This document shows positions 31,838 through 53,645 of a DNA stretch of 64,000 nucleotides, in pieces. Source of the stretch: a bacterium (GTDB taxonomy: Bacteria > Patescibacteriota > Minisyncoccia > Portnoybacterales > GWB1-42-6); the NCBI GenBank assembly GCA_043800535.1, contig JAZDMV010000023.1, forward strand, positions 111,186 to 175,185, read 5' to 3'. The number at the start of each line of letters is the position of its first letter. The stretch's first letter is position 1. The position numbers and the translations under genes were made by a program. The notes under the pieces were generated by a model. It worked only from the letters and a program-made list of their open reading frames with translations, had not been told where the DNA came from and did no database searches.

Positions 31838-31841
31838 CAGA

Positions 31842-33560: not shown

Positions 33561-33568
33561 TTTAGCGG

Positions 33569-35315: not shown

Positions 35316-35343
35316 TGGCTTGCTTATTTGTTCGTTATTTTAT

Positions 35344-35372: not shown

Positions 35373-35375
35373 TTT

Positions 35376-37192: not shown

Positions 37193-40100
37193 TCACTCAA
37201 CCTGTCCGCTGGTATAGTAAACTTGATAATTCTGCGCACCGCCGTAAAAGACGAGACGCAAAATATTCTGAGCGTCTATCACTCCCCTTGCCCACCTGAC
37301 GTAAAACGGAAATTCAAGAATTTTTCTGGGTTGCCGCCACCGGCCACCTTCTCTTTGCAAAACCATATACATTTCATAATTAACTCCGTTGTTGGCACAA
37401 AAAATCAAATACGGCTTACCCGAACTATTCAAAATTAATTCCGGCAAACTTAGAATTTCTGCGGGGTCGCCCAATGAAAAAACTTGCACTGTTGAGGTAG
37501 CAATACCGTCAAATTCTATCATGCGAATCTCGCGAACCCTCCATTCCCAACTAATTAAAAGCTTGCCCTCTTTATTAAATATCATTTCCGGCTTTTCACC
37601 GAGCGACCACACCTCGCTGAAGTTAAAAATTTTCCGTGCTTCGCTCCAGCCAAAACCATCCTGATTATTAAATGCATAATAGATGCCGTCACAAGCCCCA
37701 CTCTGGCAGCGATACCAGACCGCATGCAATTTCCCATTTCCGTCTAAAACTATATTTGGCGTAACGCCATAATCAGAATCAATAATTTTTTCAATAGCCT
37801 CCGCAAACGAACCGTCTGCGCCGAGCTTTCTATAAAGTATTGCCGAAACGTATGAAGTCGTGGAGACTGTGCCTTGCCAAATAATATGAGTGCTGCCAGT
37901 TTGATCAATTACGCCAGACGGCGAAAAATTATTACGGCCGTCTCCGGAAACATTCTGCACCGCCTCCCAAACGCCAGCGTTATAGCGCGAATAAAAAACA
38001 TCAAAACCCGGCGGGCTGCCCCAGGGCCGCGGTTTCACTTCCCCGTCAAAAATGACACTCACATTGTTTTCTCTTATAAAGATTTGCGGCGGATAGCTCC
38101 ACGGACCAAATTCGCTTCCGATGTTTTCAATCTCGCCCCAGCTGCCACCGCTATTTTTATTTGAAACAGCAATAAAAGTATTCTCTGTTGTATAAGCAAA
38201 ATGCCAAATAACCGATGGCCTGCTTTCGCTGTTTAAAACAATCCCCGGCAAAACAGAAGTTGTTGTTGTCGCATTGCCCGAAATTATTTCCGGCTCAGCC
38301 AAAGAGATTGGGAATATTACAGAAGTCGTTGAAGCGACATTACTGAAAACACAATAATCCAAATTATCACAGGCCGCAATCCTGTAATAATAATCTGTTT
38401 CTGATTCTAATGTGGTGTCACGAAAATTTGTCGCGCTAATATTATCTGTGACACTCGTCGTCGCAAATGAATTATCATAAGACCGGATCACTTTATATTT
38501 TTCCAGGCCCGGCAGGGCGCTCGCTGTCCATTCAAGCAAAGTTGATGTCGCGGTTGTTTCTTTGACGGGATAAAGATAGAAAAATTCCAAATTGAAAACA
38601 CTGTTTTGGGATTTTGGAGTACCATTTATTGCCCGGCCGTCCGCGTTAATGCCCGAACGCGTGCTGGTGCTATTACTTTTCCAATTCCCAGGCACATCCC
38701 AGGCCAAATAAGGATTTACGCGTTCCATGCTCAAGTAGTGCGGGCCAGCCGTGCCTGCTGGCCAGCCGATTGAAAAATCAGCCCAATCAATTATCCCGCC
38801 AGTATTATCTATAAGGCGCAAATTTTCTCCAGAGTTTGATAGACCGCTCCCGCCAAAACTATGTGCTAAATCAGCCACTATGTCACTAACCGTGCCATCG
38901 TCTCCGCGTTCAATTAAATAATATGATCTTGGCGCTATCGTATTTTGCAAATTTGCCACAGTGGTCGTGGCGCCTACTACCTCCGCTATTTGCCAACCGG
39001 TTAAATCTATTGTTCCGTCCGTTTTATTATAGAGTTCTATCCACTCGTCAGCCGAAGTCGAAGCGCTTGTCCCTGCCCAGGCAATTTCGTTAATAACGAC
39101 GGGATAAAAATTTATTGACGCGGCAACTTCCTGCCATTCGCCTGCGCTGCTGCTTGCGTTAGTAGCGCGTGCCCGAAAATAATAAATTGTTAAATCCTGC
39201 GACCCCTCAAAAATTTTGCTTTCGCTCGTTGTCGCAATTTCCCAATCCTGCCAAACAATAGCCGAGCTTGAGCCAATTTTGTATTGAACGCTATAGGACG
39301 CAACGTCTGTTGATGAACTATGCCAATTGACGTCAAAACTTCGCGCTGCATTTTTGTAATCCGAAAGCCAAATTGAAATTTCGGGCGGCGAACTGCTATT
39401 TTCATCTGGCTCTTCTGATTCATCTTGCGTTCCTGACTGTTCATCTCCTATTTCATCGGAGCTACTGCTCCGATGAAAAATAGCTCGCTCATGTAGCGGG
39501 CTTGATGTCGCTTTTGGTAAATTTAATTTAAAAATCTGTTCTGAAATTTGCGGTGTTTCTGGTGCAAAAACCTCTTCTGTTATTTGCGGCTGTTGCGGCA
39601 AATTACCGCTAGAATCGGTTTGGATGACATTGGCCGGCATTATTGGTTTTTGCGGAGCAGCTGTTCCGAGAACTAAATTTTTTGACGTCTGCGCTGATGT
39701 TGCGGCCGGCGGCGAACTGACCACCGATGGCTTAGCAACCTGACCCGTATCGCCTTGGGAAACCTGCGTCTGCGTTGAAAAAAACAAAGATGCAAATAAG
39801 CCAGAAACACCATTGTATGTTGTGCCCCAGGCCGACGATATCTGACCAAAAATGTCCTGTATCCCCGGCCAAATTTTTATAAACTCTCCATATGGAGAAA
39901 ATAATGGAGTCAGCTCGCGCGCCGAAAGAATGGCGGTCAAGCCGGTTGTAAACTTAAGCATGCCATTTGAAACATTCGGCGGCGGCTTTAATAAATTTCT
40001 GTCTTTTTCCGCTTTGGCGACTTCTTCGTGAAAAATTCTGATAACCTCCGTTCCGGCTAAGACGGCCTGTTTGGAAAGAAGACGCCAATAGGAGGACAGG

Positions 40101-41011
40101 ACTACTTTTTGGCTCACTAAAATTTCTCCGCTTCTCATGTCTTTTTCTGCCATTATATATTCTTCGCCTTTAGAATCTATTCTATAATATTCCTCAAAAA
40201 TTCCTACAATTTCTTTTCTGTCAGCGATTATTCTTTTATATGCGACGTCATTAATGCTATTAGCGCTAAAAAAATTCTCATTTGAGTATCTGGCAACTTT
40301 CACAAAGCAATCGTCTAAATTTGAACAATAAAAGTTTTCCTGCCGTAAATTTAAATTGTTAATATGCGATAGATCAGTATTCTCTTTTGCCCATTTTTCA
40401 TACGGCTCGCCCGGATCGCCGGCCAGGCCATCAACATGCGTGTCCTGCCGCGTGTGCGCCGGAACTGACATATCTTCTATTAGATGCAGAATATGGCCAA
40501 GCGACTTAAGTGCCTCTTTTTTGTCACCGTTGACGTAATCATAGACAGCTTTCTCAAAAGTCCGGTTGCCTTCGTAGCGCGCGTATTGGCTCTGCAAGCC
40601 CTGGTTATGCAGCCAATCAAGAGCCGAAACAGCACTTTCGGCTGAAAGCCCGATTTCCGACAAAAGCCGCACCATTGCCGGCGAAACACTGCCCAGCCGC
40701 TCGCCCTGCCAGCCAAGACCAGTTGTCGGGTCGTAAAAATGGTTAATCCAGCGTGGCGGTGTATCTTCATTTCGGGCGCCTTCGGCTATCAAGTTGATTT
40801 CCTCGCTGCTTAACGGCCTACCTAATTGGCCATAAATTTCTGCCGACTTTCTAGCTAATGAAGAATGGGTCGGATCCGGCTCATATGCCTGCGCGTAAAA
40901 AAATACAACCGCAAAAACCAACAAAAAAAGCCAAACGCAAAAGCATGGCTTCTTAAATAATGCCCTCCTCATTATTACATAAGCAAAACGTAAATTTTTT
41001 ATTTTGTGCAC
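37193..41011 (-). CDS. Large secreted multidomain protein: N-terminal Zn-dependent phospholipase C-like domain, fibronectin-III-like and lamin-tail (LTD) domains, C-terminal beta-rich repeats
   Basis: N-terminal signal/TM segment. NHFYDP and LHLIEDMSVPAHT match the Zn-PLC signature HxxxDxxxPxH. The LTD motif is NEIAWAGTS...EWIELYN...LTGW...NSGENLRLID. Confidence 0.65.
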   Translation of the reverse strand: MHKIKNLRFAYVIMRRALFKKPCFCVWLFLLVFAVVFFYAQAYEPDPTHSSLARKSAEIYGQLGRPLSSEEINLIAEGARNEDTPPRWINHFYDPTTGLGWQGERLGSVSPAMVRLLSEIGLSAESAVSALDWLHNQGLQSQYARYEGNRTFEKAVYDYVNGDKKEALKSLGHILHLIEDMSVPAHTRQDTHVDGLAGDPGEPYEKWAKENTDLSHINNLNLRQENFYCSNLDDCFVKVARYSNENFFSANSINDVAYKRIIADRKEIVGIFEEYYRIDSKGEEYIMAEKDMRSGEILVSQKVVLSSYWRLLSKQAVLAGTEVIRIFHEEVAKAEKDRNLLKPPPNVSNGMLKFTTGLTAILSARELTPLFSPYGEFIKIWPGIQDIFGQISSAWGTTYNGVSGLFASLFFSTQTQVSQGDTGQVAKPSVVSSPPAATSAQTSKNLVLGTAAPQKPIMPANVIQTDSSGNLPQQPQITEEVFAPETPQISEQIFKLNLPKATSSPLHERAIFHRSSSSDEIGDEQSGTQDESEEPDENSSSPPEISIWLSDYKNAARSFDVNWHSSSTDVASYSVQYKIGSSSAIVWQDWEIATTSESKIFEGSQDLTIYYFRARATNASSSAGEWQEVAASINFYPVVINEIAWAGTSASTSADEWIELYNKTDGTIDLTGWQIAEVVGATTTVANLQNTIAPRSYYLIERGDDGTVSDIVADLAHSFGGSGLSNSGENLRLIDNTGGIIDWADFSIGWPAGTAGPHYLSMERVNPYLAWDVPGNWKSNSTSTRSGINADGRAINGTPKSQNSVFNLEFFYLYPVKETTATSTLLEWTASALPGLEKYKVIRSYDNSFATTSVTDNISATNFRDTTLESETDYYYRIAACDNLDYCVFSNVASTTSVIFPISLAEPEIISGNATTTTSVLPGIVLNSESRPSVIWHFAYTTENTFIAVSNKNSGGSWGEIENIGSEFGPWSYPPQIFIRENNVSVIFDGEVKPRPWGSPPGFDVFYSRYNAGVWEAVQNVSGDGRNNFSPSGVIDQTGSTHIIWQGTVSTTSYVSAILYRKLGADGSFAEAIEKIIDSDYGVTPNIVLDGNGKLHAVWYRCQSGACDGIYYAFNNQDGFGWSEARKIFNFSEVWSLGEKPEMIFNKEGKLLISWEWRVREIRMIEFDGIATSTVQVFSLGDPAEILSLPELILNSSGKPYLIFCANNGVNYEMYMVLQREGGRWRQPRKILEFPFYVRWARGVIDAQNILRLVFYGGAQNYQVYYTSGQVE

Positions 41012-41066
41012 TTTTTTAAATTTTTACCCCAAAACAGAATTAAAAAATCATTTATCTAGCCAAATT

Positions 41067-41603
41067 CTACAAACTGTAAATTTTCCAGATATTAGCGTAC
41101 TTGTTTAATTGAAATGTCACCGTGCCGCTATATGTGCCCGCCTCTAAAATTGCATTCCTGCCAAGAAGTTCGTCAAAATACTCTCTATCTTTTTCCACGA
41201 TAAAAGTAAACGAATATTGTTTCCCATCCTTATCCCAATACTCCTCCTCTTTCATCTCCTCCCATTTCGGCAAATCATCAATATACTTCTGCAATTCGCC
41301 TTTGGCGGCCAAGTCCTGCAATTTGGCTTTTTGCCCGTCTTCTTTCTGAAAATAAAAATAGCGGCTGGCTGATTCCAGGTCTCCACGTTTCAAAGCCGCG
41401 ACATACAAATCGTACGTTTCCTGCGGCGTTGCGCCGCCGTATGTGTCGCTCTTAAAATAACTAGTCAGCTCATTCTCAACTGCCTGCCAGTCACGGCCGA
41501 TCTTCCAGCTTTGATAATAAGGCCAGGCAAAAAAATAAACCACCCAGATAAAGGCGGCCGCAATTAAAATAAAAATCCCGCTTGCAATAATTTTTTTTCG
41601 CAT
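41067..41603 (-). CDS. Hypothetical membrane-anchored protein
   Basis: Single N-terminal TM segment (IIASGIFILIAAAFIWVVYFF) then a charged soluble domain. The start is taken at the internal MRKK. Confidence 0.4.
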   Translation of the reverse strand: MRKKIIASGIFILIAAAFIWVVYFFAWPYYQSWKIGRDWQAVENELTSYFKSDTYGGATPQETYDLYVAALKRGDLESASRYFYFQKEDGQKAKLQDLAAKGELQKYIDDLPKWEEMKEEEYWDKDGKQYSFTFIVEKDREYFDELLGRNAILEAGTYSGTVTFQLNKYANIWKIYSL

Positions 41604-41723
41604 ATTTATTTTCAATCTAAATATAAACCAGCTGATTTTTCCTGCCTCTATTCTAAAACCAATGTCCACCGCTGTCTATCCCCAATTCTTTCTTCCCGCG
41701 GCCACCAATTTCGCAATCTTGCA

Positions 41724-41772
41724 ATCGCACATAAACTCCCGCGCTCGGGAGCACGGAAGTTTATGTCTGATC
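41724..41772. repeat. Palindromic repeat family A copy 2
   Basis: aatcgcacataaactcccgcgctcgggagcacggaagtttatg. It shares the core with copies at 37131 and 42320 and overlaps the stop of 41761-42303. Confidence 0.5.
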
Positions 41773-42303
41773 GTTGATTTTGATAGTTTTGAAAGCCGAA
41801 TTTATTTGCTTATACAGGGCTGATTTTTTATCCATTTTAGCAATCGCAGCTTTTAATCTGTTTTTATTACGGTAATTCGCCGCCTTAATTATTTCTTCCA
41901 AAACAATCTGCGGCCAGTAGTAAGATGGGTACCTCTTTTTTATTTGTTCAAAAGGCGTTTTCTCTCCGTAATTTTTTTTCACTCCTTTATTCTTTTTTGT
42001 CCTTTCTAGTACTAAACGATATCCTTCGCCTGAATATTTTAACCATTCTCCCACCCGCGCTATTTTTGATGCTCCGACTTTCAAATGACGCATTATCTCT
42101 GTATAACCAAATCCGTCAAGCAATAATTCTGCTATCTTTAACCTTTTAGCCAGCATTTCCAGCTCCTGCACAGTGATTAGATCGCGCATAAATTCTGCCG
42201 CTTCAACAGAATCTCGCAGAGACGCCAAAGCTTCACAGAACTGTATCGTCAATCTCTCGATCTCTTCCTTGCTAAGCTTTGAATTTATACTAAATTTATT
42301 CAT
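41761..42303 (-). CDS. TrpR/YerC/YecD-family helix-turn-helix DNA-binding protein
   Basis: EFMRDLITVQELEMLAKRLKIAELLLDGFGYTEIMRHLKVGASKIARV is the TrpR-like HTH. The start is taken at MNKFSIN. Confidence 0.55.
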   Translation of the reverse strand: MNKFSINSKLSKEEIERLTIQFCEALASLRDSVEAAEFMRDLITVQELEMLAKRLKIAELLLDGFGYTEIMRHLKVGASKIARVGEWLKYSGEGYRLVLERTKKNKGVKKNYGEKTPFEQIKKRYPSYYWPQIVLEEIIKAANYRNKNRLKAAIAKMDKKSALYKQINSAFKTIKINDQT

Positions 42304-42319
42304 TTTAACGCCCAAATAT

Positions 42320-42368
42320 AATCGCACAGAAACTCCCACGCTCCCGAGCACGGGAGAAGACGTGCGAT
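42320..42368. repeat. Palindromic repeat family A copy 3
   Basis: atcgcacagaaactcccacgctcccgagcacgggagaagacgtgcgat. It lies between the stop of 42397-44652 and the start of the TrpR-like gene. Confidence 0.45.
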
Positions 42369-42396
42369 AGCGAATTCAGAAAATGACGGAAAATGC

Positions 42397-44652
42397 CTAG
42401 AGGCCGGAAGCTTTCAGAAACTGATCAACGTAATCTTTTTGCGAGGGGTCGATCTCAACCACTTTCAAAGCCGCTTCTTTCGCCTTGTCTCGCTGTCCGT
42501 CTGCCAGATAACTGTCTGCCAAAGCGGCATAGATGTCCGCGTTTTGCGGCGAGAGCTGCAGGCCTTTCAATAAACAAGAGATGGAACGACCAAGATCGTT
42601 ATTGTTCCGCAGAATCATCCCCAGTCTTAAATAATTGCTGGCGGTCAGGGCGTCAGGCCCGAATCTTTGCTGAATATCGGCGAGCTTCGCTTCGCCGTCC
42701 TGTATCCTGCCAATCGCAAAATACATCAATGCTAAATTCCAATGAGGATCAAGAATTTTATCGTTCAGGGCGATCGCTTTTTTGAAAAGCTCCAGCCCCT
42801 CGTCGATTTTGCCAAGCCGCAGTTTCGTCTCCCCAAGCCCGAAATAGAGAAGTTCTTTTGTCGGGCTAAGTTTTAAGGTGTCAGAAAAAATTTCTTCAGC
42901 GCGCACAAGGCGGCTGGCATCCATTGGCACGGCGGCAAGATTCAATTCACCGATGCTCACGGCATAACGGGCGTCCTGCGGCCTTTCTTTTATATTTTTG
43001 TCGCCTTCCTCAAGCGCCAAACGGACAAAATCATCCACCGGCCCTTTATTCTGATATTTGTCGTAACTAGTCATCAGATTTTTTGCTATGTCAAAAAGCT
43101 GAAGCCGCACCTCAAACCGGCCAAAAGTCCCGTAGCTCAATGCTTTTCTAAAATTAGCGTCAACCGCCTGCAGGCTTTCCTGCTGGGCGGCTAAGGCCTT
43201 TATGCCCCAGATCCCCGCCAAAGCCGGCTTAATGTTCAAAAAATAACCAAAGAAAATAAGAACGACAGCCACTGCCACCTGCAGAAAAACATTTGGCCTG
43301 ATAGGATGCGGAGTCGCGACAGCGCGTTTCTCTGATTTACCAATCCAGTCAATAAACGCCAAGAAAGTAAAAAGTGGCAAATAAGAGTAAATCATATCAA
43401 AAACGAAAAAGTCCTGCGCCAGATATCCAAGCGGCAAGATCGCAAAAAGCGCGGCGTTCAGAAAATCAATTCTTTTTTGTTTATAGGCGCGCCAGATAAT
43501 GACCAGAACCAAACCAAAAATAGAAAGAAAACTCAAAAATCCCAAAAAACCAGTTGTAACAAGCGTGTCAAAAACAATGTTGTGCGCCCGGTCAAACCAG
43601 TTCTCAACCGGATAGAGCTGCGGATCGTAGAATTTATTAAACACCACGTTATAGTTTTCCCAGCCCCAGCCCAAGATCGGCCTCTCCTTGACCCCTTCCC
43701 AGCTCATTCCCCAGGCCAGAAGCCGTGTCTGGGAAGTGGTCTCGCTTGCAGAGATATTTGCCAAACGCCGCAGGGTATAGGAGTTCCGGACCCATCCCGA
43801 ATTTTTGAAAACAAAAACTGATGCGGAAAACAGGACAAAACAAATTAAGATCACGGCAGAAATTCTTTTCAGTTTTTTCCTGATTGTAGCAAAAGCAGGC
43901 GTTTCTTCGACGCTTCTCGGCCAAAAAATCATGGCCACAAGGAACAGAATAAGCGAAGCGCCAAAAGCCAGCAAACCGCCTCTGGTCTGCGTCCAGAAAA
44001 GGATCACAAACGCAAAAAGGAAAGCGGCCGCGTAATAGATCCTGGCCAAATTTCGGCGCCGCTGAAAATACATAAAAACGATGAAAAACAGAAGAAACAA
44101 AAGATAGGCGGCAAAATAAGCACCGTTGCCAAAAGTCGCCGAAATTCTGCCAACACCGGCCAGAAAAAATCCCTGAACTCCCAGTTTTTGGAAAAGACCG
44201 ATAAAGCAAAGCGCCAGGCCAGCTGCGATAAAAAAGTCAAAAACCATCAGCCAGTCCTTTTTGGTCTTAAAAACAGAGCTCAAGATCACAAAAAGCGCAA
44301 AATAATGCAGCATGGTGATAAATCCGGTCATTCTTTCATACGAACTCCAGAAGCTTAGGAAAAAATCAACTCCCAAAACGCCGCTCAAAAAAACAATGAA
44401 CATAAAAACGGCGACCACCCAAAAAAGGCGCGAAAGCCGCGGCCGGAATTCCGGGCGATCAAACATCAAAAGAAGCCAGGCAAAAAAAGCGATTTCAACC
44501 AGAACCTGGAAAAGCGCGGTTTTGGGAAAAACAAAAGGAAAAATAAAAGCGTCGCTGACAAAAAGCGGCGTGAAAAAAGAAGCGATAACGGCCGCCTTAA
44601 CAATAAACAGCAAGATTGAATTTTTTGTCCCATTGGAAATTTGGTTGTTCAT
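42397..44652 (-). CDS. O-antigen ligase (Wzy_C) family membrane protein with C-terminal TPR repeats
   Basis: About 12 TM helices. FWTQTRGGLLAFGASL is the Wzy_C loop motif. The C-terminal roughly 250 aa carry TPR-like repeats (ALNDKILDPHWNLALMYFAIGR...). Confidence 0.7.
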   Translation of the reverse strand: MNNQISNGTKNSILLFIVKAAVIASFFTPLFVSDAFIFPFVFPKTALFQVLVEIAFFAWLLLMFDRPEFRPRLSRLFWVVAVFMFIVFLSGVLGVDFFLSFWSSYERMTGFITMLHYFALFVILSSVFKTKKDWLMVFDFFIAAGLALCFIGLFQKLGVQGFFLAGVGRISATFGNGAYFAAYLLFLLFFIVFMYFQRRRNLARIYYAAAFLFAFVILFWTQTRGGLLAFGASLILFLVAMIFWPRSVEETPAFATIRKKLKRISAVILICFVLFSASVFVFKNSGWVRNSYTLRRLANISASETTSQTRLLAWGMSWEGVKERPILGWGWENYNVVFNKFYDPQLYPVENWFDRAHNIVFDTLVTTGFLGFLSFLSIFGLVLVIIWRAYKQKRIDFLNAALFAILPLGYLAQDFFVFDMIYSYLPLFTFLAFIDWIGKSEKRAVATPHPIRPNVFLQVAVAVVLIFFGYFLNIKPALAGIWGIKALAAQQESLQAVDANFRKALSYGTFGRFEVRLQLFDIAKNLMTSYDKYQNKGPVDDFVRLALEEGDKNIKERPQDARYAVSIGELNLAAVPMDASRLVRAEEIFSDTLKLSPTKELLYFGLGETKLRLGKIDEGLELFKKAIALNDKILDPHWNLALMYFAIGRIQDGEAKLADIQQRFGPDALTASNYLRLGMILRNNNDLGRSISCLLKGLQLSPQNADIYAALADSYLADGQRDKAKEAALKVVEIDPSQKDYVDQFLKASGL

Positions 44653-44802
44653 ATTTTTGATAATTATTAATTTTGTTTAGAACAAGTATCAAATTGCTTT
44701 AATTAAAATGAAATAACTCCTTATCGATCAAAAAACGGGATTGCTTCGTCGTCCCGCACTGTGCGGGGCTCCTCGCAATGACATGCTTTATAACTTAATC
44801 TC

Positions 44803-47046
44803 CTATTGCCCCATTTTTTTCCTGACGACTTCAATAAATTTATCCACGGTTTCTTTGGTAGAAGGATTAAGCTCGGCTGATTTTTGCGCTGCTTCAATCG
44901 CCTTTTGGTATTGTCCAGTTTGATAATAAGCGTTGGCCAGAGAGGAATAATAGAGATAGTTGGTTGTGCCGTTCTTTATCACAAGATTAAGCCAGCGAAT
45001 TTCATTCTCTTTGCTTGAAGCCGGCGCAAAAAGCGGCATAAACCTGTCTAAATTTTCCTGGCCCACGTGATGTCCCATATCAATGGCTTTGACAAATGCC
45101 TCTTTGGCATTTTCAAAGTCCTGTTTCTGGAATAGGATCTTTGCCAATTCCCAATAGGAACCGGGGACTTTATCGTTCAGCGCGATCGCTTTTTCAATGA
45201 CACTCTGCGCCGCGTCAAATTTTCCGGCAAACATCAGGTTTTCCATCAAAATATAATAAAGCGTGACGCGGTTGGGGGAGCTGGCGATCGCTTTATCAAT
45301 ATAGATTTTGGCTTCGTCCCTGAAGCGCGTGTCCAGATCAGTGGCATATCGGACGTCAAGCAGTTCGGCCAGCTTATAGTTGTAATAAGTATCGTCCGGC
45401 ACATATCTTAAATTCTGCTTGTGCAGATCAATGGCAAAGTCCAGATCAAATTTCTGGTTGGGGTTTTGGGCCACGGCCGTGTAATAATTATGGATCGCGT
45501 TGGCCGCCACGGTTTTCAGATCCAGGTCCCAGAAAGTGTTATAGGAAACTGATTTTTTCAGATAGCTCATGCCAGCCTGATACGCCTGCTGCTGCTGGCC
45601 TTCATAGGGCTGGAAAAGATAGACCTGGGCCATGACACTGTCTTTGAAGGCCTTATATGGCTTTACGACAAAAAGATTCGTTGAATAGTAAAGACCTGCC
45701 CCAAAAATGATTGCGGCCACAATAACTAAAGCGGGCCGAAATTTTAGCGCCGAAACTTTTTGTGCGCCTGGCTCCTGTTTTTCGTCAGCCCAAAATTTCC
45801 CGACAAAAACTAAGAGTACAGACAAACCAAGCAAGGCGGGCAGAGAGTCAAACAAAAACAGATTCTGGACAAAATACGCGATGACTAGGCCGCCAAAAGC
45901 ACCCAAAAAGACAAAATCCTTGTCTTTTTTGTAGAGCTTGACTACGCAGTAAAAAACGCAGGACAAGAATACAAGATATGTTAGCAGCCCTAAAATTCCG
46001 GTTGCGGCCAGGTGCTCAATTATGACATTGTGCGCTCGGTCAAAATATTCTTCAGCCGCAAAATTATAGTATCTGGCATCAAAATATTTATTGAACGGCT
46101 GGGTAAAATTTTCATATCCCCAGCCAAGCACTGGCTTATCCAAAAACCCCAGCCAACCGGCTTTCCAGGCGATAAGACGGCCTTGGATAGTTGCGTCTCC
46201 GGATGAAAAATGCACGAGCCGATACAAATAGGCACTGTTTTTTATGAAGCCTTGGTTCTGCAGCGCGAAAAACATGCCATACACCGCCACCAAAAAAAGA
46301 AATCCGGCAACCAGGCCCCTGCGCAATTTAGGACTGCCCAAATTTTTGACGATCGCAAAGAAAGCGAAAACAAAACCGACGGCAATTCCCAAAAAAGCAC
46401 CGCGGGTCCCAGTCAGAAAAATAGCCAGGCCGTGAATCGCAAAAACGCCGCCATAAACAACACGCCAGGACCATTTTGAATTTTTCAGGCAGAGATATGC
46501 GGAGAAGAACAAGCCAAAAATAAGATAGGCCGCCAGTTTGGCCGCGTTGCCAAACATGGCAAAAATTCTATTCTCGCCGGCGATGCTGGTCAGCCCAAGT
46601 TTCTGCAAAAGCCCATAGACGGCAACAATAGTGCTGGCCGCCAAAAAAACATTAAGCAAAAAGTTGACTTCTTTTTTTTCACCAAAGATGCTCGTGCCGA
46701 CCAGAAACAAAACAAAGAAATAAAGCATGCCAAACAATCCCGTCATTCTTTCCACGTCCCCCCAGAAACTTAAGAACGGACTGGCGCTAAAAACAGTTGA
46801 AGCCGCCAAAGCCAAAAGATAAAGGCCGAAAGACCCGAGCAAAATGCTGAAGCGCGGCCGTTCTTTTGGAAAAAGCAAAATAAAAACCAGCCAGGCAAAA
46901 AATAAGATGTTGACAACTAGACGGAAAAATAAAGTGCTTGAAGAAACATAAGGGAAAAAAAGATAACGGTCAATCACCAGAGGAGAAAATAAAGAAACAA
47001 AAAATAAAATTTGGAGGATTCGTTTAAAGATATTTTGTTTGGGCAT
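44803..47046 (-). CDS. O-antigen ligase (Wzy_C) family membrane protein with C-terminal TPR repeats (tandem paralog)
   Basis: FLTGTRGAFLGIAVGF is the Wzy_C motif. TPR-like C-terminus (AIALNDKVPGSYWELAKILFQKQDFENAKEAF). Confidence 0.7.
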   Translation of the reverse strand: MPKQNIFKRILQILFFVSLFSPLVIDRYLFFPYVSSSTLFFRLVVNILFFAWLVFILLFPKERPRFSILLGSFGLYLLALAASTVFSASPFLSFWGDVERMTGLFGMLYFFVLFLVGTSIFGEKKEVNFLLNVFLAASTIVAVYGLLQKLGLTSIAGENRIFAMFGNAAKLAAYLIFGLFFSAYLCLKNSKWSWRVVYGGVFAIHGLAIFLTGTRGAFLGIAVGFVFAFFAIVKNLGSPKLRRGLVAGFLFLVAVYGMFFALQNQGFIKNSAYLYRLVHFSSGDATIQGRLIAWKAGWLGFLDKPVLGWGYENFTQPFNKYFDARYYNFAAEEYFDRAHNVIIEHLAATGILGLLTYLVFLSCVFYCVVKLYKKDKDFVFLGAFGGLVIAYFVQNLFLFDSLPALLGLSVLLVFVGKFWADEKQEPGAQKVSALKFRPALVIVAAIIFGAGLYYSTNLFVVKPYKAFKDSVMAQVYLFQPYEGQQQQAYQAGMSYLKKSVSYNTFWDLDLKTVAANAIHNYYTAVAQNPNQKFDLDFAIDLHKQNLRYVPDDTYYNYKLAELLDVRYATDLDTRFRDEAKIYIDKAIASSPNRVTLYYILMENLMFAGKFDAAQSVIEKAIALNDKVPGSYWELAKILFQKQDFENAKEAFVKAIDMGHHVGQENLDRFMPLFAPASSKENEIRWLNLVIKNGTTNYLYYSSLANAYYQTGQYQKAIEAAQKSAELNPSTKETVDKFIEVVRKKMGQ

Positions 47047-47079
47047 TTGTTTATTAGCGCTTAAATTAAATTATGTTTC

Positions 47080-47139
47080 AAAATCTCCCCTAGCCCCTCC
47101 CCGTATCAAGTACGGGGTAAACTCTAAAGGAGGGGAACT
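47080..47139. repeat. Short direct-repeat element (aaatctcccctNNcccctcc ... actctaaaggaRgggaact), left copy flanking DUF559
   Basis: Nested hairpins cccctcc/ggagggg and ccccgta/tacgggg. The same motifs recur at 47549-47581 and 47607-47707. Confidence 0.5.
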
Positions 47140-47174
47140 CGGTCTCCCTCCCTTTAGGGAGGGCTGGGGAGGAT

Positions 47175-47528
47175 TTATATTTCGTTATATATTTTTTCTA
47201 CTACATTCTCAATATTTTTCAAAACGTCCAAGTTTGTAAATCGCAAAATGCGTAAATTTAATCTATTCAAAGATTCTTCCCGTTTTTTATCTTCTTCTAT
47301 ATTTTTATTTTCGTAATGCTGTCCCCCATCAATTTCTATCACAAGCCTAGCATCTTTGCAATAAAAATCAGCGATATAATTGTCTATCGGTTTTTGTCTG
47401 TAAAATTGAAAGTCCTTTATCTGCCGCCTTCTTATCTTTGACCATAATAATTTTTCTGCGTCTGTAGAATTTCTACGCAACTGACGGCTTAGTGATTTAA
47501 GATTTTCGCCGTATGAGAAAAATTCCAT
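47175..47528 (-). CDS. DUF559 endonuclease-domain protein (restriction-endonuclease-like fold)
   Basis: ADFYCKDARLVIEIDGGQH is the signature DUF559 motif. 117 aa. Confidence 0.65.
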   Translation of the reverse strand: MEFFSYGENLKSLSRQLRRNSTDAEKLLWSKIRRRQIKDFQFYRQKPIDNYIADFYCKDARLVIEIDGGQHYENKNIEEDKKREESLNRLNLRILRFTNLDVLKNIENVVEKIYNEI

Positions 47529-47548
47529 TTTAAATCTTGCCGAGTTTA

Positions 47549-47581
47549 AAAAATCTCCCCTAACCCCTCCTAAAGGAGGGG
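47549..47581. repeat. Direct-repeat element, short copy (aaaatctcccctaacccctcc with hairpin)
   Basis: cccctcc taaa ggagggg hairpin. Matches the 5-prime part of the 47080 copy. Confidence 0.45.
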
Positions 47582-47606
47582 AAAATTAAATATGTCCAAA
47601 TTTAAT

Positions 47607-47707
47607 AAATCTCCCCTCGCCCCTCCCTTCGACCCATTCGACTACCGCTCAGGGTGGTGAGCAAAGTTGAACCACAAGCTCAGGACAGACTCTAAAGGAA
47701 GGGAACT
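47607..47707. repeat. Direct-repeat element, right copy flanking DUF559
   Basis: aaatctcccctcgcccctcc ... actctaaaggaagggaact. It matches both ends of the 47080-47139 copy. Confidence 0.45.
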
Positions 47708-47740
47708 TTTAGGGGAACCTAAAAGAAATATACCAAACTT

Positions 47741-47784
47741 TTTTAAAAAAAACAACACCCCGCTAGTCACAAGCAAGCGGGGTG
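47741..47784 (-). terminator. Rho-independent terminator of the surface-protein gene
   Basis: caccccgc(13-nt loop)gcggggtg. On the minus strand it is followed by ttgtttttttt. Confidence 0.6.
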
Positions 47785-47834
47785 TTTTGGAAATAGTCGC
47801 TAAAGAGGGACGACTATTTAATCCTTATTAAGTT

Positions 47835-50800
47835 TTACGGAGTAAGAGTGATAGATGGCAATGGCAAACTCTTTACGAGGAAGCCGTTAAACCAGTCAGC
47901 TGAAACACTGCCCGAAGTGCTCACATGAGGTATAACGCTGCGGTCTGACCAGATGAAGTAGTAGAACGTTGAAGCGTCGCCAGTGTTGCTGTCATCCAAT
48001 CCCCAATAAGTACTGGCTGGATAGTTGGCATACAACTTGGTGCGTTCAAGGTTCGTTGTATCTTTGGTCAGAGTTAAGGTCACGCTGTCGGAGCTGGTCG
48101 TGCCCTTGTCAAACAATCTTGGCGTGGCCTTCAGAGTAAACTCTGTGGCCGTTGTGACTGTTTTTTCCGTCGGGAAAGCGACTATCAAGCCCTTGGTCGT
48201 GTCTGCTTCTGTAATACCGCTGTTTCCGGTCGCGTCACCGGTTGTGCCGTCGTCCTTAATCGTGGCTGCAGCCGTAATGTCAGTAGCGCCTTCGTAGAGC
48301 AACCAATAATCCAGTTCCAGGGTGTCCACTGTCGGACCAGCATCAGTCCAGGCCACGTCAAATCCGATCTGTTTCAAAGAAACAGAGCCGCCGGCCGAAG
48401 GAGTGACTGTGAATTTCGCCACTTCGCCTGAAACGTTGTTTGTGATGGTCTTGCCGGACGAACTGGTCAGGGCTAATGTCGGATAGCTCTTATAGACAAC
48501 AACAGCATTGCCTTCGCGGTCAGTGCTTTCATAGGTAGGCGTGCCGTTTGAGTCATAGATATAGAGCGTATCCAGCGTGGTTGAAGCATTCAAGGCCGCG
48601 TTAGTCGCGCCAGTGCCAATTGTGTTAAGCCCGAGCTTAACGGTCAGGGTCTTGGTTGTGTTGGAAGGAATCTGCCAGGACAAACCAGTGGTCGTGGAAA
48701 TACCGCTGCCGTCAACCACTGAGCCACCCGGATTCAGCAGGGTTGCACCGTCGTACAAGAGAACCGAATTGACAACTGCCGCCTGGGTCACGTTGCGGAA
48801 TTTGATAGCAATCTGATTAACGGTGTAAGTGTCGCTGGCTGCCGTTAGATCAAAGTTGGCTGCTTCAATTGTCTGGCCGCCGTAGGCCAGTTGGTCAAGC
48901 GGGGTCTCGGTAGCGGCGGTTGTGAATGAACCACTGCCCCAGGTGATGGTTTGACCCAGAACCTCGCTTGCGTTAGCAGTAGCTCCGGAGTTTGCGGCTG
49001 TGCCGCCAACTGCGGTTCTGATGCCTGTAGTGCCTGAAATTGTGGTGTTGGTGGTGCAGTAGAGCGCAATAGGAATCGTGGCGCCGGGCTGCAACGTATA
49101 GCTAACTGAAAAGCTCTCTGAAGTTGAAGAGGTGAGTGTGCTCTTGAGCGACGTTGTCTTGTCAGCGTAGGTGTAGTAACAATTTGACAGGTCAGCGACG
49201 CCAAGGATTGAGTTCTCCGCGTCCTCAAAGTCAGGCGATATGCTTGTCAGATTGACCGGTTCGGTTGTCCCGGACGTCAGCCGCCATTCGCCCAATTTAA
49301 AGGCGGTCTTTGGCGGAACTGCGGTTTGACTGGTATAGCCGGTGTATTTAACTATGGTTATGGTCCCCTCTTTAACGGTCAAAACGTTGCCTGATTTTAT
49401 CGTGGCGGGAGAAACAAAATAAGTGCCGGAGACCGTTCTCTGCGCATTACTGACTGCGCTTGCAAGAACATCGCCGCGCACTTGCCAGTCAGCTACCACC
49501 TGGTTTGTTCCATCGTTGTCATAAATGTCCATTCTGATCTCTAAAACTCTATCAGTGCCAGGAGTGACAACTAAGGAAGAACCAAGAGAAAAGCGGGTAT
49601 ACTGGGCTGTCACATCATTGTCAGATGAGATAGATTGTGTGCTGCCGACCTGAATGCCGTCAGCGAACAAAGCGCCGTTCCGCCATGTGACTGCATCGGT
49701 ATTGGCTGTAGCCGAAGAAGTATAGATCGCAATATCAAGCGACTCAATCTTAATCGGTTCGCCCAGCGCCTTTAAGTCAAATTTAGCTATGGTAGCGCTG
49801 CTGCCGCCATTGGTAACATTGCCCGAAGGCGAAGTAGTTGCCTTGGATATCGTCAAACTGCCGGCCGCAATGGTTTGGGCAGTTGAGCTCTGGGCAGAAA
49901 ATGTGGTGCTAGCTGCCTGAACGAGAATTGTTGAGGCATATTCACTATCAGTGAAAATAACATCTGCCGCGTATCTCAATGACAAGCTAGTGGTTCTGGT
50001 TGAACCACCAACGATATCTACCAAAACTTTGAACTCGCGGGCGCCTGTCTGCAGTGTCTTGGGCGAGCTGGTTATGTCAAAAGCGACATATCCATTAGCA
50101 TCCATGGCCGCCACAGTTGAACCAACCTGAACGCCGTCAACTAACAGCTTGAAATTGGCCAGGTCGGCTGTATTAACCGAACCGATCTGTCTGAATGTTA
50201 TGTATTTCAGATAAACGGATCTGGTTGAAATAGTGACTGTGCTCTGCCAGAGATTGAATTCGGTCTGAGGGCTTGGCGTGCCATCAGATGAAGGCGTCAC
50301 TGTGCCAAAACTGACTCCGCCCAAAGTACCAGACGCGATAGTGTGGAAATTACCGTTGATCGGGAAACTGCCGGTGACAGTCGCGCCATCGGTCACGATA
50401 TAGCTGCTTTCAAACATGCTGACTCCAATCGTTTCGCCGGCTGTGCCGTCAATGTCTGATTTGACAGTGATGGTTTTGGTTGTGCCGGCAGGGATCGTGA
50501 AGATTCCCGTGCTGTTATTCCAAGATACGATGTTTGAGCTAACCGAAGCGTTGTCGGTTATTCTGGTGTTACCATCGTAAAGATAAACATTCGTCAAAGT
50601 GGCATCAGCTGAAACGCCGATTCTCTTGACCTTGAAGGTGGTCACCTTAACAGCGCCGTTTGAAGGAGCCGTCAAATTGAACGAAGCCAAAGGATTAGCC
50701 GCCGAACCGTCAACAATGGTTGTTGATGGCTGGGTGTTTGGAGACAGGGTCACTTGTAAAGTGGTGCCCGGCGTTATGCCGCTGCCTTCAGTTGACAAAG

Positions 50801-51308
50801 TGCAAGTCGTGTCATCGTTGCTTGCAGTGTAGCTGTCACGGTCAACAGTGTTAATCTGATAAACTGAATCCCAATCAAACAAGGCGTTGCTTGAATTGCA
50901 AGCAGTAAACTGTTCTGCGGTCATGTTGACCCAGTGTTTGCCGCCATTATCGCTATTGGCAACTGGGGCCAGGTTATAGACCTTTGGGTCGCCAACGGCT
51001 CTCACCAAAGTGGAAATCGTGAACTGATCCATTGTCGCCTGGCTGACGGTCTTGACATTGCTCCAGCTAAGATGTCCGTAGCTATTGAAAACGCTCGGGC
51101 TAAGAATCAATCTCTTGAAAGCCTTGGCTCCGAGATATTTTGCAATATAAACATCAGGACTGGCGGCCGTCTTTATAAGCGCGCCCTCGGCGATGTTGTC
51201 AATGACAGCGTTAGCCATCATTGGAGCAAGCATACCGATACCGCTCATAGTCGCGATCGTTGCGATAGAAGCCGTAACAGAAATAAGTTTTTGAATTTTT
51301 TTACTCAT
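47835..51308 (-). CDS. Large (1157 aa) Thr/Ser/Gly-rich secreted cell-surface protein with repeated beta-rich (Ig-like) regions; candidate S-layer/adhesin-like glycoprotein
   Basis: N-terminal signal peptide (ISVTASIATIATMSGIGMLAPMMANA). Extreme T/S/G/A/V-rich composition with repeated TxTV-type beta-strand patterns. Its own promoter, leader and terminator. Confidence 0.6.
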   Translation of the reverse strand: MSKKIQKLISVTASIATIATMSGIGMLAPMMANAVIDNIAEGALIKTAASPDVYIAKYLGAKAFKRLILSPSVFNSYGHLSWSNVKTVSQATMDQFTISTLVRAVGDPKVYNLAPVANSDNGGKHWVNMTAEQFTACNSSNALFDWDSVYQINTVDRDSYTASNDDTTCTLSTEGSGITPGTTLQVTLSPNTQPSTTIVDGSAANPLASFNLTAPSNGAVKVTTFKVKRIGVSADATLTNVYLYDGNTRITDNASVSSNIVSWNNSTGIFTIPAGTTKTITVKSDIDGTAGETIGVSMFESSYIVTDGATVTGSFPINGNFHTIASGTLGGVSFGTVTPSSDGTPSPQTEFNLWQSTVTISTRSVYLKYITFRQIGSVNTADLANFKLLVDGVQVGSTVAAMDANGYVAFDITSSPKTLQTGAREFKVLVDIVGGSTRTTSLSLRYAADVIFTDSEYASTILVQAASTTFSAQSSTAQTIAAGSLTISKATTSPSGNVTNGGSSATIAKFDLKALGEPIKIESLDIAIYTSSATANTDAVTWRNGALFADGIQVGSTQSISSDNDVTAQYTRFSLGSSLVVTPGTDRVLEIRMDIYDNDGTNQVVADWQVRGDVLASAVSNAQRTVSGTYFVSPATIKSGNVLTVKEGTITIVKYTGYTSQTAVPPKTAFKLGEWRLTSGTTEPVNLTSISPDFEDAENSILGVADLSNCYYTYADKTTSLKSTLTSSTSESFSVSYTLQPGATIPIALYCTTNTTISGTTGIRTAVGGTAANSGATANASEVLGQTITWGSGSFTTAATETPLDQLAYGGQTIEAANFDLTAASDTYTVNQIAIKFRNVTQAAVVNSVLLYDGATLLNPGGSVVDGSGISTTTGLSWQIPSNTTKTLTVKLGLNTIGTGATNAALNASTTLDTLYIYDSNGTPTYESTDREGNAVVVYKSYPTLALTSSSGKTITNNVSGEVAKFTVTPSAGGSVSLKQIGFDVAWTDAGPTVDTLELDYWLLYEGATDITAAATIKDDGTTGDATGNSGITEADTTKGLIVAFPTEKTVTTATEFTLKATPRLFDKGTTSSDSVTLTLTKDTTNLERTKLYANYPASTYWGLDDSNTGDASTFYYFIWSDRSVIPHVSTSGSVSADWFNGFLVKSLPLPSITLTP

Positions 51309-51667
51309 TTTTTATTTTAATTTTGATCACTCCGGGATTGATTTTCGAAAATCAAGCCAGGAGTTTGTTGAGATGTTTTAAAGGAAGTCAAACTTCCCAA
51401 ACCTTTCGGTTTTATTTAAGCGACTGCTTCGACATCGCAGTCTACTCTCCCCCCGCTTTAATAAGCGAGGTGTCCTCGAGGTTGTCCTTACACCCCCCCT
51501 ATTTCTTTACGGGGGTAACATCTCTTTTTTACTATCCGGCTATGCCTGGAGTTCTACTCCGGCCAGCCGAACGGATTATTTTTCTGTCTTTCTCAAAAAT
51601 AAAACAAGAACAAACCCCCGGGGAGTTTCACCCCACGGGCTGTCGACCTTTTCCTTGTTTCTTCCAA

Positions 51668-51697
51668 ATTTTAGCTTTTTTAGCATGTAATTGTCAA
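51668..51697 (-). promoter_or_regulatory. Sigma70-like promoter for the surface-protein gene, giving a roughly 350-nt leader
   Basis: Minus strand reads TTGACA, a 17-nt spacer (attacatgctaaaaaag), then CTAAAAT. Confidence 0.5.
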
Positions 51698-51764
51698 ATT
51701 TTTACCTGTGGATAAAAAAAACGGTTTTATATGCCAACCACACCTTTTAACCTTAATTTTCCGC

Positions 51765-52934
51765 CTAAAAAGTCGTTACCTGGATAGGAGCCGGCGGGAT
51801 GGTTAACGGCAATTCAATGTATGAGCTGGTAGAAGTCGCACTCGGCAAGGCATTTTCCGTGCTGGAAGCGTTTTTCTTATCGGAAACCGGCTCGGCCGCT
51901 TTATCAGCATCAGAACCAGCCGCTGGCGTGGCATTCCCGCTTTCTACTATCTTTTCAGCGTTTTTTACCATTTCGTTGATGGCCTTGATCATCTCCAACG
52001 CCGCGACTGTGTCATTGTTCTGCAAACTCTCTTTTGCCTGGCTGACCGCCTTATCTGATTCATCAAGAATGATTGTCGCGTTTATCGCCAATTTATTGGA
52101 AATCGTTGAACTGGCAACTGACATTTCCAAATTCTTTATTCTCATTTCCGTTTTTTGTATCTTCTCGCCTAAATTGGCAACAATATCTGCCTGGTCTCCG
52201 GCATCGCTTTGTTTACTCATCATCATTTCCAGCGCTTTTGTGCTGGTTTTATCCGCCTCATCAGCCGCTTCGGTTATTTTTTCTGCTAAACTTGGCTTCA
52301 TTTCTGCAGAAAGCGTCAATCTTGCCTGGCCTAACGCATGCTCGGCCTGAACCGCGTTTTTATCTATTTTTTTAGCTACCTCAACCGCTTTTTTTGCGTC
52401 TGTTCCGCTTAATTTTGGCAAATCGTCTTTCGCGGTCAGAAGATACCTCTGCAAATTAGTGACTGCCTGTTCAATCCTCGGCTGCCTTGCCTCAATGGAA
52501 TCACTGGCATTTATCACCCTATTCAACTCATCAAGCCGAGAGGCAATCATTTCGCTCTGAAACTCTGCCTTTCCTTCGGCAGAAGTAGTTGTAAAAAGCC
52601 GGGCTTGTTCAAGCGCGATTTTAACCGAATAAAGGCGGTCGCCGGGCAAACTCTCTTTTGCCATAGTCAATGCGCCTAAGCTGCTGCTAAAAATAAGCAC
52701 AAAAACAACTGTCATTATAGATATTGGCTTTAGAGCAGGCCCGAATACATTTAACTGGCGCAGCCAGGTGAAAAATCCGATTGAATTGGCATTGACTGCC
52801 ATTTTCTGTTCCCGGCCATTCTCAAACATTGAAACCAGATTTTGCCGACAAAAAACCGCCCAATTTTCATCAGGGGTTATTTCCTTTAATTCGCGAAGCC
52901 GTTCTATAAGCTGGTTTTCGGTTATTTTTGTCAT
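51765..52934 (-). CDS. DUF5667-like membrane protein, putative anti-sigma factor partner of the upstream ECF sigma factor
   Basis: N-terminal cytoplasmic segment, one TM helix (ISIMTVVFVLIFSSSLGAL), then a long helical extracytoplasmic domain with a low-complexity tail. It lies immediately downstream of the ECF sigma gene. Confidence 0.45.
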   Translation of the reverse strand: MTKITENQLIERLRELKEITPDENWAVFCRQNLVSMFENGREQKMAVNANSIGFFTWLRQLNVFGPALKPISIMTVVFVLIFSSSLGALTMAKESLPGDRLYSVKIALEQARLFTTTSAEGKAEFQSEMIASRLDELNRVINASDSIEARQPRIEQAVTNLQRYLLTAKDDLPKLSGTDAKKAVEVAKKIDKNAVQAEHALGQARLTLSAEMKPSLAEKITEAADEADKTSTKALEMMMSKQSDAGDQADIVANLGEKIQKTEMRIKNLEMSVASSTISNKLAINATIILDESDKAVSQAKESLQNNDTVAALEMIKAINEMVKNAEKIVESGNATPAAGSDADKAAEPVSDKKNASSTENALPSATSTSSYIELPLTIPPAPIQVTTF

Positions 52935-53001
52935 CCTAATAAATAAGACGGAAAAACGCCTATTCTATTACACCTGGGACACGAACAAAATAAGCATATA
53001 A

Positions 53002-53046
53002 ATCCCCACACCATGGGCTTACGCAGAGTTTTTCTGGTGTGGGGAT
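53002..53046. repeat. Palindromic hairpin element with a 12-bp stem atccccacacca/tggtgtggggat (copy 2 of 2)
   Basis: The stem is identical to the one at 36540-36582. The 21-nt loop is different. It lies between the sigma and anti-sigma genes. Confidence 0.5.
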
Positions 53047-53104
53047 AAACAAAAACAGTCCCGACGTGATATCGGGACCGCTTTAAATCCATAGTTTATC
53101 CTCA

Positions 53105-53632
53105 TTACCGATTATTAGCCCTTTTTGCCTCTAAAACGGCCTTTAGAGCCCCTATTGCCCTGGAAAGCGAGGTTCTGACCGCTCCTTCTGATTTACCCCA
53201 AATTTCACAGATTTCAGGCACGCTGAAGTCGTCAATATAGTGCCAGATAATAAGCTCCTGATATTCGTCTTTCAGCTCTCGCAAGCATTCTCTGACCTTA
53301 TCCAATTCCAGGCCTGTTTCCGCGCCACCAATCACTTCTTCCTCTGATTCGCTTAAATCCAATTCGGAAGTCGTTTCCAAAGATATTGGCAATTTGGAAA
53401 CGTTCCGGAAATTATCGGCAATCATATTTCGGCAAATTTGGTAGACCATTGCCGATAAATTTCCAATTTCTTTTCCGCCTTTTATGTACTGCCACATCTT
53501 CATAAAGGCCTCTGCTGATATATCCTGAGCGACTTGTTCCGAGCCAACCCGAAAATAAACATAGCGATAAATCTTCGTTATGCTTTGATCGTAAAATTCA
53601 AGAAATTTTCGTTCATTTTCCGCTAATGTCAT
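53105..53632 (-). CDS. RNA polymerase sigma-70 family ECF sigma factor
   Basis: Region 2 (FYDQSITKIYRYVYFRV...AEAFMKMW). Region 4 HTH (ELIIWHYIDDFSVPEICEIWGKSEGAVRTSLSRA). 175 aa. Confidence 0.8.
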   Translation of the reverse strand: MTLAENERKFLEFYDQSITKIYRYVYFRVGSEQVAQDISAEAFMKMWQYIKGGKEIGNLSAMVYQICRNMIADNFRNVSKLPISLETTSELDLSESEEEVIGGAETGLELDKVRECLRELKDEYQELIIWHYIDDFSVPEICEIWGKSEGAVRTSLSRAIGALKAVLEAKRANNR

Positions 53633-53645
53633 TATTTATGCAATA

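Follow-up and report, generated by a model that had tools for sequence, protein, structure and literature searches.

The 64,000-nucleotide stretch analyzed here (hereafter the window; positions 111,186 to 175,185 of contig JAZDMV010000023.1, assembly GCA_043800535.1, from a member of Patescibacteriota in the lineage Portnoybacterales) contains two tandem genes on the minus strand whose products join a Wzy_C transmembrane domain to C-terminal tetratricopeptide repeats (TPRs). They are labeled throughout as WT1, the downstream paralog (42397-44652, 751 aa), which represents the lineage-wide Wzy_C-TPR type, and WT2, the upstream paralog (44803-47046, 747 aa), which belongs to a small clade. Sequence comparison supports the view that both are Wzy_C enzymes of the WaaL fold with intact catalytic residues, and the family is best filed as very widespread, uncharacterised Wzy_C-family glycan ligases or O-oligosaccharyltransferases (O-OTases), for which a TPR-bearing precedent is already known. 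The reading favored here, with a confidence slightly short of even, is that WT1 and WT2 are O-OTases of the WsfB/PglL kind acting on secreted surface proteins; it is somewhat likelier for WT2 and less so for WT1. The strongest new evidence is the pairing of the WT2-type gene with the gene of a Ser/Thr-rich surface protein, which was found in every one of the seven contigs where the upstream region of WT2 could be seen.

Domain architecture and relationship of the paralogs

The initial annotation had described two paralogs of about 750 aa with a Wzy_C domain and TPRs, and both genes were confirmed as such, at the positions it gave. The assignment to Wzy_C was also upheld by profile scoring: against the Pfam model (PF04932; gathering score 31.7 bits) WT1 reached 80.8 bits (E 1.2e-22) and WT2 76.1 bits (E 3.1e-21). 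The domain spans aa 209-376 of WT1 (43525-44028, minus strand) and aa 202-358 of WT2 (45973-46443, minus strand). The TRGG loop motif that had been ascribed to both proteins is literal in WT1 (TQTRGG, aa 221-226), but WT2 has TGTRGA at this place, although the Arg itself is invariant; the other motifs in WT2 are QGRLIAW with its conserved Arg, GWGYENF and FDRAHN. Several TPR families of Pfam matched both proteins alike at aa ~600-740. In WT2, where the families concerned include TPR_2, TPR_8 and TPR_16, the matches lie at aa 519-734 and the domain as a whole covers about aa 490-740 (44827-45579, minus strand). The TPR region of WT1 also gave matches to OGT, to consensus TPR proteins and to MamA.

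The two proteins are paralogs over their full length, with 30% identity end to end (E 7e-99). Identity was highest in the catalytic loop (45.5%), intermediate in the membrane domain (34.5%) and lowest in the TPR domain (24.9%), as would be expected if the TPR domain sets partner specificity. WT1 was 100% identical to the NCBI protein "MAG: O-antigen ligase family protein [bacterium]" (MAG, metagenome-assembled genome). In a collection of 5.8 billion proteins both WT1 and the surface protein discussed below were found at 100%, and WT2 had no identical entry and none above 61% identity. WT2 may have been left without annotation in the source record, or marked there as a pseudogene, although its open reading frame (ORF) is intact.

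Fold, catalytic residues and membrane topology

The AlphaFold2 model of WT1, built with 40 homologs, was of high confidence (pLDDT 92.3, pTM 0.89) and showed a polytopic fold of the WaaL type with 13 membrane helices, in which helix 9 is followed by a large loop on the outside. When the profile of the N-terminal 450 aa was compared with the PDB, WaaL (7TPG) was the sole sequence match (E 4.8e-11), and the profile alignment paired the motifs TRG, R-L..W, G-x-G and H-A-H-N; no PglL, PilO, WsfB or Wzy_C-type Wzy was matched in that search, and the full-length protein retrieved TPR proteins only. Conservation was assessed over 40 family sequences including both paralogs. Five residues, R224, R310, E332, D354 and H357 in WT1 numbering, were invariant in all 40; the last four belong to the large outside loop. 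Functional residues have been reported in Escherichia coli WaaL (R215, R288 and H338) and in Neisseria PglL (R224, R298 and H349) (PMC3643930), and R224, R310 and H357 of WT1 are their counterparts.

The thirteenth helix of WT1 (aa 455-477; 43222-43290, minus strand) was delimited by DSSP of the model, has a mean Kyte-Doolittle value of 1.9 and would run from the cytoplasmic face to the outside. It is followed by a TPR superhelix of ~14 helices (aa 494-748; 42409-43173, minus strand). In the same 40 sequences Lys and Arg amounted to 17.0 in the loops assigned to the inside vs. 6.0 in the short outside loops. With 13 helices, and with charges that follow the positive-inside rule, both the TPR domain and the catalytic loop beside it (residues 282-358) are predicted to lie on the extracytoplasmic side, and the N-terminus inside.

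Pairing of WT2 with a Ser/Thr-rich surface protein

The candidate acceptor is a secreted protein of 1157 aa (47835-51308, minus strand) with a signal-peptide-like N-terminus. Ser and Thr make up 26.6% of its residues vs. 9.2% in 30 other proteins of the window. No Pfam or NCBIfam model matched it. Its AlphaFold2 model (pLDDT 82) comprises a signal helix, two small alpha/beta domains and about eight immunoglobulin (Ig)-like beta-sandwiches. Since Foldseek returned generic multi-Ig proteins only, e.g., PrgB and integrins, the name S-layer protein cannot be claimed for it. At least 508 homologs of ~1100-1250 aa were found in Patescibacteria, some of them with an N-terminal PG_binding_1 domain.

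The WT2 clade consists of about 22 orthologs at 42-61% identity, and the remaining family reaches at most 31%. The region upstream of the WT2-type gene was visible in seven contigs, namely the window, L001, L081, L083, L084, L085 and L086, and in all seven an ortholog of the 1157-aa protein was encoded immediately upstream on the same strand. These orthologs were 41-56% identical, contained 23-27% Ser+Thr and had a signal peptide wherever the N-terminus was present. The other flanks varied: a WT1-type gene followed the WT2-type gene in six of eight contigs, with other genes following in L083 and L084.

A DUF5667 protein (51765-52934, minus strand) is encoded upstream of the surface-protein gene, as in L083, L084 and L087, and upstream of it lies a sigma-70 factor of the extracytoplasmic function (ECF) type with the domains Sigma70_r2 and Sigma70_r4 (53105-53632, minus strand), found at the same position in L083, L087 and L090. 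In Patescibacteria that are distantly related, genes of the 1157-aa family are repeatedly preceded, directly upstream, by these two genes, and this gene order suggests that they form a dedicated control module of the sigma/anti-sigma-like kind for the surface protein.

A gene for a 117-aa DUF559 protein (Vsr-like endonuclease fold; 47175-47528) lies between the surface-protein gene and WT2. It looks like a recent insertion, because L001, the closest relative, has only a 325-nt gap there.

Spread of the family and its gene neighborhoods

A relative was encoded in at least 570 genomes in a scan with one genome per species. In a profile search among 1.84 billion representatives of 50% identity clusters the best 150 clusters all had E <1e-199, most of them being 700-850 aa long and matched over the full length. 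Both results together indicate a core step in building the cell surface of the candidate phyla radiation (CPR). The source organism is an uncultured, ultra-small member of the Parcubacteria (CPR). The named homologs of WT1 came from Portnoybacteria, Nealsonbacteria, Kuenenbacteria, Harrisonbacteria, Sungbacteria and other Parcubacteria/Patescibacteria. Among the taxonomic labels of the 80 broad-family loci analyzed, 76 were Patescibacteria/CPR, three were generic and one was Spirochaetia. The last of these (L013, VFJS01000003.1) is a MAG contig of 408 kb with a full-length member of 772 aa, and it represents either a rare occurrence outside CPR or a binning or labeling issue.

Parcubacteria, and CPR in general, have been reported to lack the genes for lipid A and lipopolysaccharide (LPS) and to be Gram-positive-like (PMC5220378, PMC10221324). 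The statement of the initial annotation that the window holds no LPS core genes was borne out, as no domain of the Lpx, Kds or Waa type was detected among the 48 larger ORFs that were scanned. It is accordingly unlikely that these proteins function as O-antigen ligases, and in CPR the annotation is probably a misnomer. A literature search found nothing specific to the Wzy_C-TPR family in this group.

For the neighborhood survey, ORFs were called in the 80 loci and clustered, and representatives were checked against Pfam. The Wzy_C-TPR gene was usually single, and a tandem pair was present in L001 and L002 only. Its commonest neighbor was a divergent initiating phosphoglycosyltransferase of the Bac_transf family (26 of the 80 loci), followed by SecA (23), MurB (19), CTP_transf_3/NeuA-like proteins (17), an ABC exporter (14), NeuB (12), UDP-GlcNAc 2-epimerase (11) and a Polysacc_synt/Wzx-type flippase (10). 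The Bac_transf, Wzx-like, ABC exporter and Neu genes, the last (NeuA/NeuB/NeuC) at 11-20 loci, point to a pathway for a polyprenyl-diphosphate-linked glycan, often with nonulosonic acid, and the setting, as read from the domains, is a housekeeping neighborhood of the cell envelope.

A second family of secreted Ser/Thr-rich proteins (300-460 aa, 17-29% Ser+Thr) was encoded no more than three genes from a WT1-type gene and on the same strand in 10 of the 80 loci, which represent several candidate phyla. It accounted for 10 of 363 near genes but for just 1 of the 471 lying farther away (Fisher p 0.0015). When secreted proteins of at least 20% Ser+Thr were picked out by a crude screen, these made up 14 of 369 near vs. 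4 of 517 far genes (p 0.003), with hits that were not independent of each other and a signal-peptide rule that missed L001. Had homologs never been linked to Ser/Thr-rich surface proteins, the proposal of the initial annotation would have lost its ground; such linkage does exist, in all informative contigs for the WT2 type and in an eighth of the broad-family loci for the second family. In three loci of Paceibacteria (L016, L024 and L037) the first two genes after the Wzy_C-TPR gene (+1 and +2) encoded tandem secreted proteins of 300-470 aa with 25-36% Ser/Thr, the +2 genes being members of the second family.

Proposed mechanism and comparison with known systems

Domains, predicted fold and topology, residues, spread and linkage were observed or computed; from them we infer a scheme that proposes a donor and an acceptor, a chemistry and a way in which the paralogs divide the work. 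The twelve WaaL-like helices would bear the outside catalytic loop, and the 13th helix would put the TPR superhelix of ~250 residues on the same side of the membrane. Homology with WaaL and PglL suggests that the Arg residues would hold the diphosphate of a flipped polyprenyl-diphosphate-linked glycan, that the hydroxyl of the acceptor would attack C1 and that polyprenyl diphosphate would be released. A protein acceptor is proposed because the lineage is reported to be without lipid A-core. The TPR domain would present a secreted cell-surface protein, and the side chain of Ser/Thr (or Tyr) would receive the glycan en bloc. WT2 could be the enzyme dedicated to the adjacent Thr/Ser-rich multi-Ig-like protein, and WT1 could be a general enzyme of the lineage.

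The closest functional precedent is WsfB of Paenibacillus alvei, an S-layer O-OTase with Wzy_C and a C-terminal TPR motif that is encoded with the S-layer glycan locus (PMC2943079). In Geobacillus stearothermophilus a TPR protein, WsaA, is encoded beside the Wzy_C protein WsaB (PMC2943079). Compared by description, these systems share with WT1 and WT2 the monoderm host, the combination of Wzy_C with a C-terminal TPR or a neighboring TPR protein, and a place in or beside a surface-glycan locus near a surface-protein gene, as seen in the window and in the same order in L081 and L082. Their donor, a lipid-linked glycan begun by an enzyme of the Bac_transf type (PMC2943079; 10.1101/2020.05.20.105809), is counted as a further likeness. 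However, WsfB acts on Tyr of an S-layer protein with SLH domains, whereas the candidate acceptor here is an unrelated multi-Ig-like protein without SLH, and the CPR family, unlike WsfB, has a full TPR superhelix of ~250 aa attached via a 13th helix.

PglL, PilO (TfpO) and PglS of Gram-negative bacteria are similar to the pair in the Wzy_C domain and the conserved Arg/Arg/His. Their genes often adjoin the gene of the acceptor protein (PMC3643930), typically a pilin; the WT2-type gene adjoins the gene of a candidate acceptor. They differ in that the PglL_A and Wzy_C_2 models are unmatched in WT1 and WT2, which have no pilin neighbors, a monoderm host and a large TPR domain. WaaL of Cupriavidus metallidurans (PDB 7TPG/7TPJ) differs, at 15% identity, in having 12 helices and no TPR, and it acts on lipid A-core, an acceptor that CPR are reported to lack (PMC5220378, PMC10221324). 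A WaaL in the strict sense has ~400 aa, 12 helices and a place in a waa locus; the proteins studied here, with their 751 and 747 aa, 13 helices plus TPR and non-waa neighbors, do not fit that description. TacL of Streptococcus pneumoniae is likewise a Wzy_C protein of a monoderm and transfers a polyprenyl-diphosphate-linked polymer to a non-LPS acceptor (PMC5727136), but it has 397 aa, no TPR and a place in the choline-teichoic-acid pathway (TacF/Lic), of which no genes are in the window.

The fusion of a membrane enzyme to TPRs has parallels in another fold, namely the GT-C fold (PMT/ArnT-like) rather than the Wzy_C/WaaL fold, so that these are cases of analogy and not of homology. Eukaryotic TMTC1-4 are membrane glycosyltransferases fused to lumenal TPRs and act on proteins. 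TfpW of Pseudomonas aeruginosa is a membrane glycosyltransferase that uses a polyprenyl-linked donor, and its fused TPR is thought to bind the protein substrate (10.1101/2020.04.19.049825).

A broader proposition is put forward here with somewhat greater reserve. CPR may possess a lineage-wide, OTase-dependent system of general protein O-glycosylation, built on a WaaL fold with an external TPR domain, and in one clade a duplicate may have become dedicated to the major wall-associated, S-layer-like multi-Ig protein under the control of the ECF sigma/DUF5667 module. According to the literature, O-glycosylation that depends on an OTase occurs mainly in Gram-negative bacteria (PMC12871550), and a phylum-wide monoderm system, if confirmed, would widen this picture. 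The surface of CPR bacteria is also the interface by which these ultra-small episymbionts attach to their hosts, and its formation and structure have been described as unclear (PMC5220378). In public databases these proteins are named O-antigen ligase family proteins, in bacteria reported to be without O-antigen and lipid A. The gene pair of WT2 and the surface protein offers a concrete candidate for an enzyme and its substrate, and, if the reading is right, the family would be a source of new O-OTases for glycoengineering that bring their own substrate-binding domain.

Evidence against a protein acceptor and alternative explanations

The O-OTase reading of the initial annotation is partly supported, by the fold, the residues, the lineage, the predicted topology, the linkage and the WsfB precedent, but no computation tells whether the acceptor is a protein, a lipid or a glycan, and a number of observations weigh against it. 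The Wzy_C fold and the Arg-Arg-His triad are common to lipid-acceptor ligases (WaaL, TacL) and protein OTases, and polysaccharide export scaffolds also use TPR domains, so that a TPR domain is no proof of a protein substrate. Neither PglL_A (PF15864) nor Wzy_C_2 (PF11846) matched WT1 or WT2 at E <=0.01 (PF11846 is recorded in one homolog, P0054, among the 120 listed), and no NCBIfam model reached its cutoff for the pair, the sub-threshold matches being IctB, the exosortase-associated PEP_O_lig_1 and PrsT. Prepilin-like genes, the classic neighbors of PglL/TfpO, were near in only two of the 80 loci and absent from the window. About 85% of the broad-family loci had no Ser/Thr-rich secreted neighbor, and the frequency of MurB and SecA nearby points to a housekeeping role in the envelope. 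Within the window no gene was found for a Bac_transf initiating enzyme, for Wzx, for an ABC exporter or for nonulosonic acid.

The pairing with the surface protein has its own limits. All contigs with the consistent synteny belong to a single clade, and common descent may account for part of it. Among four distant homologs of the 1157-aa protein, a Wzy_C-TPR gene was within 8 kb in one, and glycosyltransferase genes were near all four. A member of the 1157-aa family was present in only four of the 80 broad-family loci (Poisson p ~0.08). Within the protein itself, Ser and Thr amount to 23% in strands and 30% in loops, and there is no mucin-like tract.

Two alternatives are each given a low probability. 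The first is a lipid-anchor ligase similar to TacL or WaaL, which would join a polyprenyl-diphosphate-linked polymer to a membrane glycolipid and so make a molecule like a lipoglycan or lipoteichoic acid, with the TPR domain scaffolding either partner proteins or the polymer. Such a role would suit a family that is near-universal, usually single-copy and often placed among the envelope genes MurB and SecA. The closest solved relative, WaaL, is a lipid-acceptor ligase, and TacL joins teichoic acid chains to a glycolipid (PMC5727136). TacL and WaaL, however, have ~400 aa and no TPR domain (PMC5727136), genes of the teichoic-acid type were not observed among the neighbors of the family, either in the window or in the 80 loci, and the constant pairing of WT2 with the surface-protein gene would be left unexplained.

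The second, to which a similarly low weight is given, is an enzyme of a wall glycopolymer, either a Wzy-like polymerase or a ligase whose acceptor would be peptidoglycan itself, some secondary wall polymer or a protein-borne glycan primer, with the surface proteins binding the polymer. The Pfam family Wzy_C includes polymerases as well, and a Wzx-like flippase, an initiating phosphoglycosyltransferase and MurB are frequent neighbors. The PG_binding_1 domain in some homologs of the 1157-aa protein suggests anchoring in the wall, which could need a wall glycopolymer, and Bacteroidota have been proposed to extend a core glycan with an outer one by means of a distinct ligase (PMC12871550). On the other hand, the invariant His and both Arg are those known to be functionally important in WaaL and PglL (PMC3643930). 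No chain-length regulator of the Wzz type (Wzz/PCP domain) was seen in the scan of the window ORFs, and known monoderms use LCP enzymes rather than Wzy_C proteins for attachment to peptidoglycan (PMC5727136).

It is improbable that the PMT_2 enzymes of the nearby glycan locus, which have the GT-C fold, glycosylate the Ser/Thr-rich proteins instead, with polyprenyl-phosphate-monosaccharide donors from the short GT2 enzymes, the position of the Wzy_C-TPR genes then being a matter of envelope gene clustering. In Actinobacteria and eukaryotes, enzymes of the PMT family add O-mannose to secreted proteins rich in Ser/Thr, and in the window four PMT_2 genes have three short GT2 genes beside or near them in the same locus. 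Nevertheless, the adjacency of WT2 and the surface protein is kept in L083-L085, where the PMT_2 locus is not adjacent, and the function of a family found in hundreds of species genomes would be left unexplained. Finally, an IctB-like membrane protein for the transport of bicarbonate or another solute is hardly credible: IctB (TIGR00947) was the best NCBIfam match and a homolog at JGI bears the name "putative inorganic carbon transporter," but the scores of 48.3 and 40.5 bits fall far under the cutoff of 366.4 bits, so that IctB membership was rejected, the transferase residues are invariant and the neighbors are glycan-pathway genes.

Glycan locus and other neighboring genes

A locus for glycan biosynthesis and modification, recognized from Pfam matches, extends from 447 to 36521 and is a possible donor pathway for the O-OTase reaction proposed here. 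It encodes three GDP-Man-dehydratase-like proteins, two DegT aminotransferases, seven B12-binding radical S-adenosylmethionine (SAM) proteins, about six class-I SAM methyltransferases, seven glycosyltransferases of family GT4, three short ones of family GT2, four PMT_2 GT-C enzymes and a DUF6580 protein, a domain content by which the locus is unusually rich in modification enzymes. The PMT_2 enzymes could glycosylate Ser/Thr or decorate the glycan outside the cell.

In L081 the gene pair is directly followed by GT4, epimerase, GT4, DUF6580, GT4, B12-radical SAM and GT2 genes, in the same order as at 27070-36521 of the window, and in L082 these glycan genes come after an LTD/fn3 protein instead. 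Synteny among close relatives thus supports an association of the pair with the glycan locus. The suggestion that the heavily modified glycan of this locus is the one transferred draws its support from such synteny, and, with neither an initiating transferase nor an exporter in the window, the donor pathway is incomplete as seen.

The second large secreted protein (1272 aa; 37193-41011, minus strand) contains LTD and fn3 domains and separates the gene pair from the glycan locus. The initial annotation had placed the pair between the glycan locus and two very large Ser/Thr-rich proteins; the pair in fact lies between the two large proteins. The description as strongly Ser/Thr-rich applies to the 1157-aa protein and not to the 1272-aa protein, with its 16.4% Ser+Thr, which is the weaker acceptor candidate. 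Its counterpart in L082 (6234-9728) is an LTD/fn3 protein of 1164 aa at the same relative position, which shares aa 29-380 of the 1272-aa protein at ~30% identity.

Scans of 41000-53800 for promoters (20 vs. 15.9±4.3 in shuffled sequences) and terminators (23 vs. 16.5±4.4) did not rise above expectation. A small protein of the Trp_repressor family (YerC/YecD-like) is encoded after the WT1-type gene both in the window (41761-42351) and in L086 (8127-8690).

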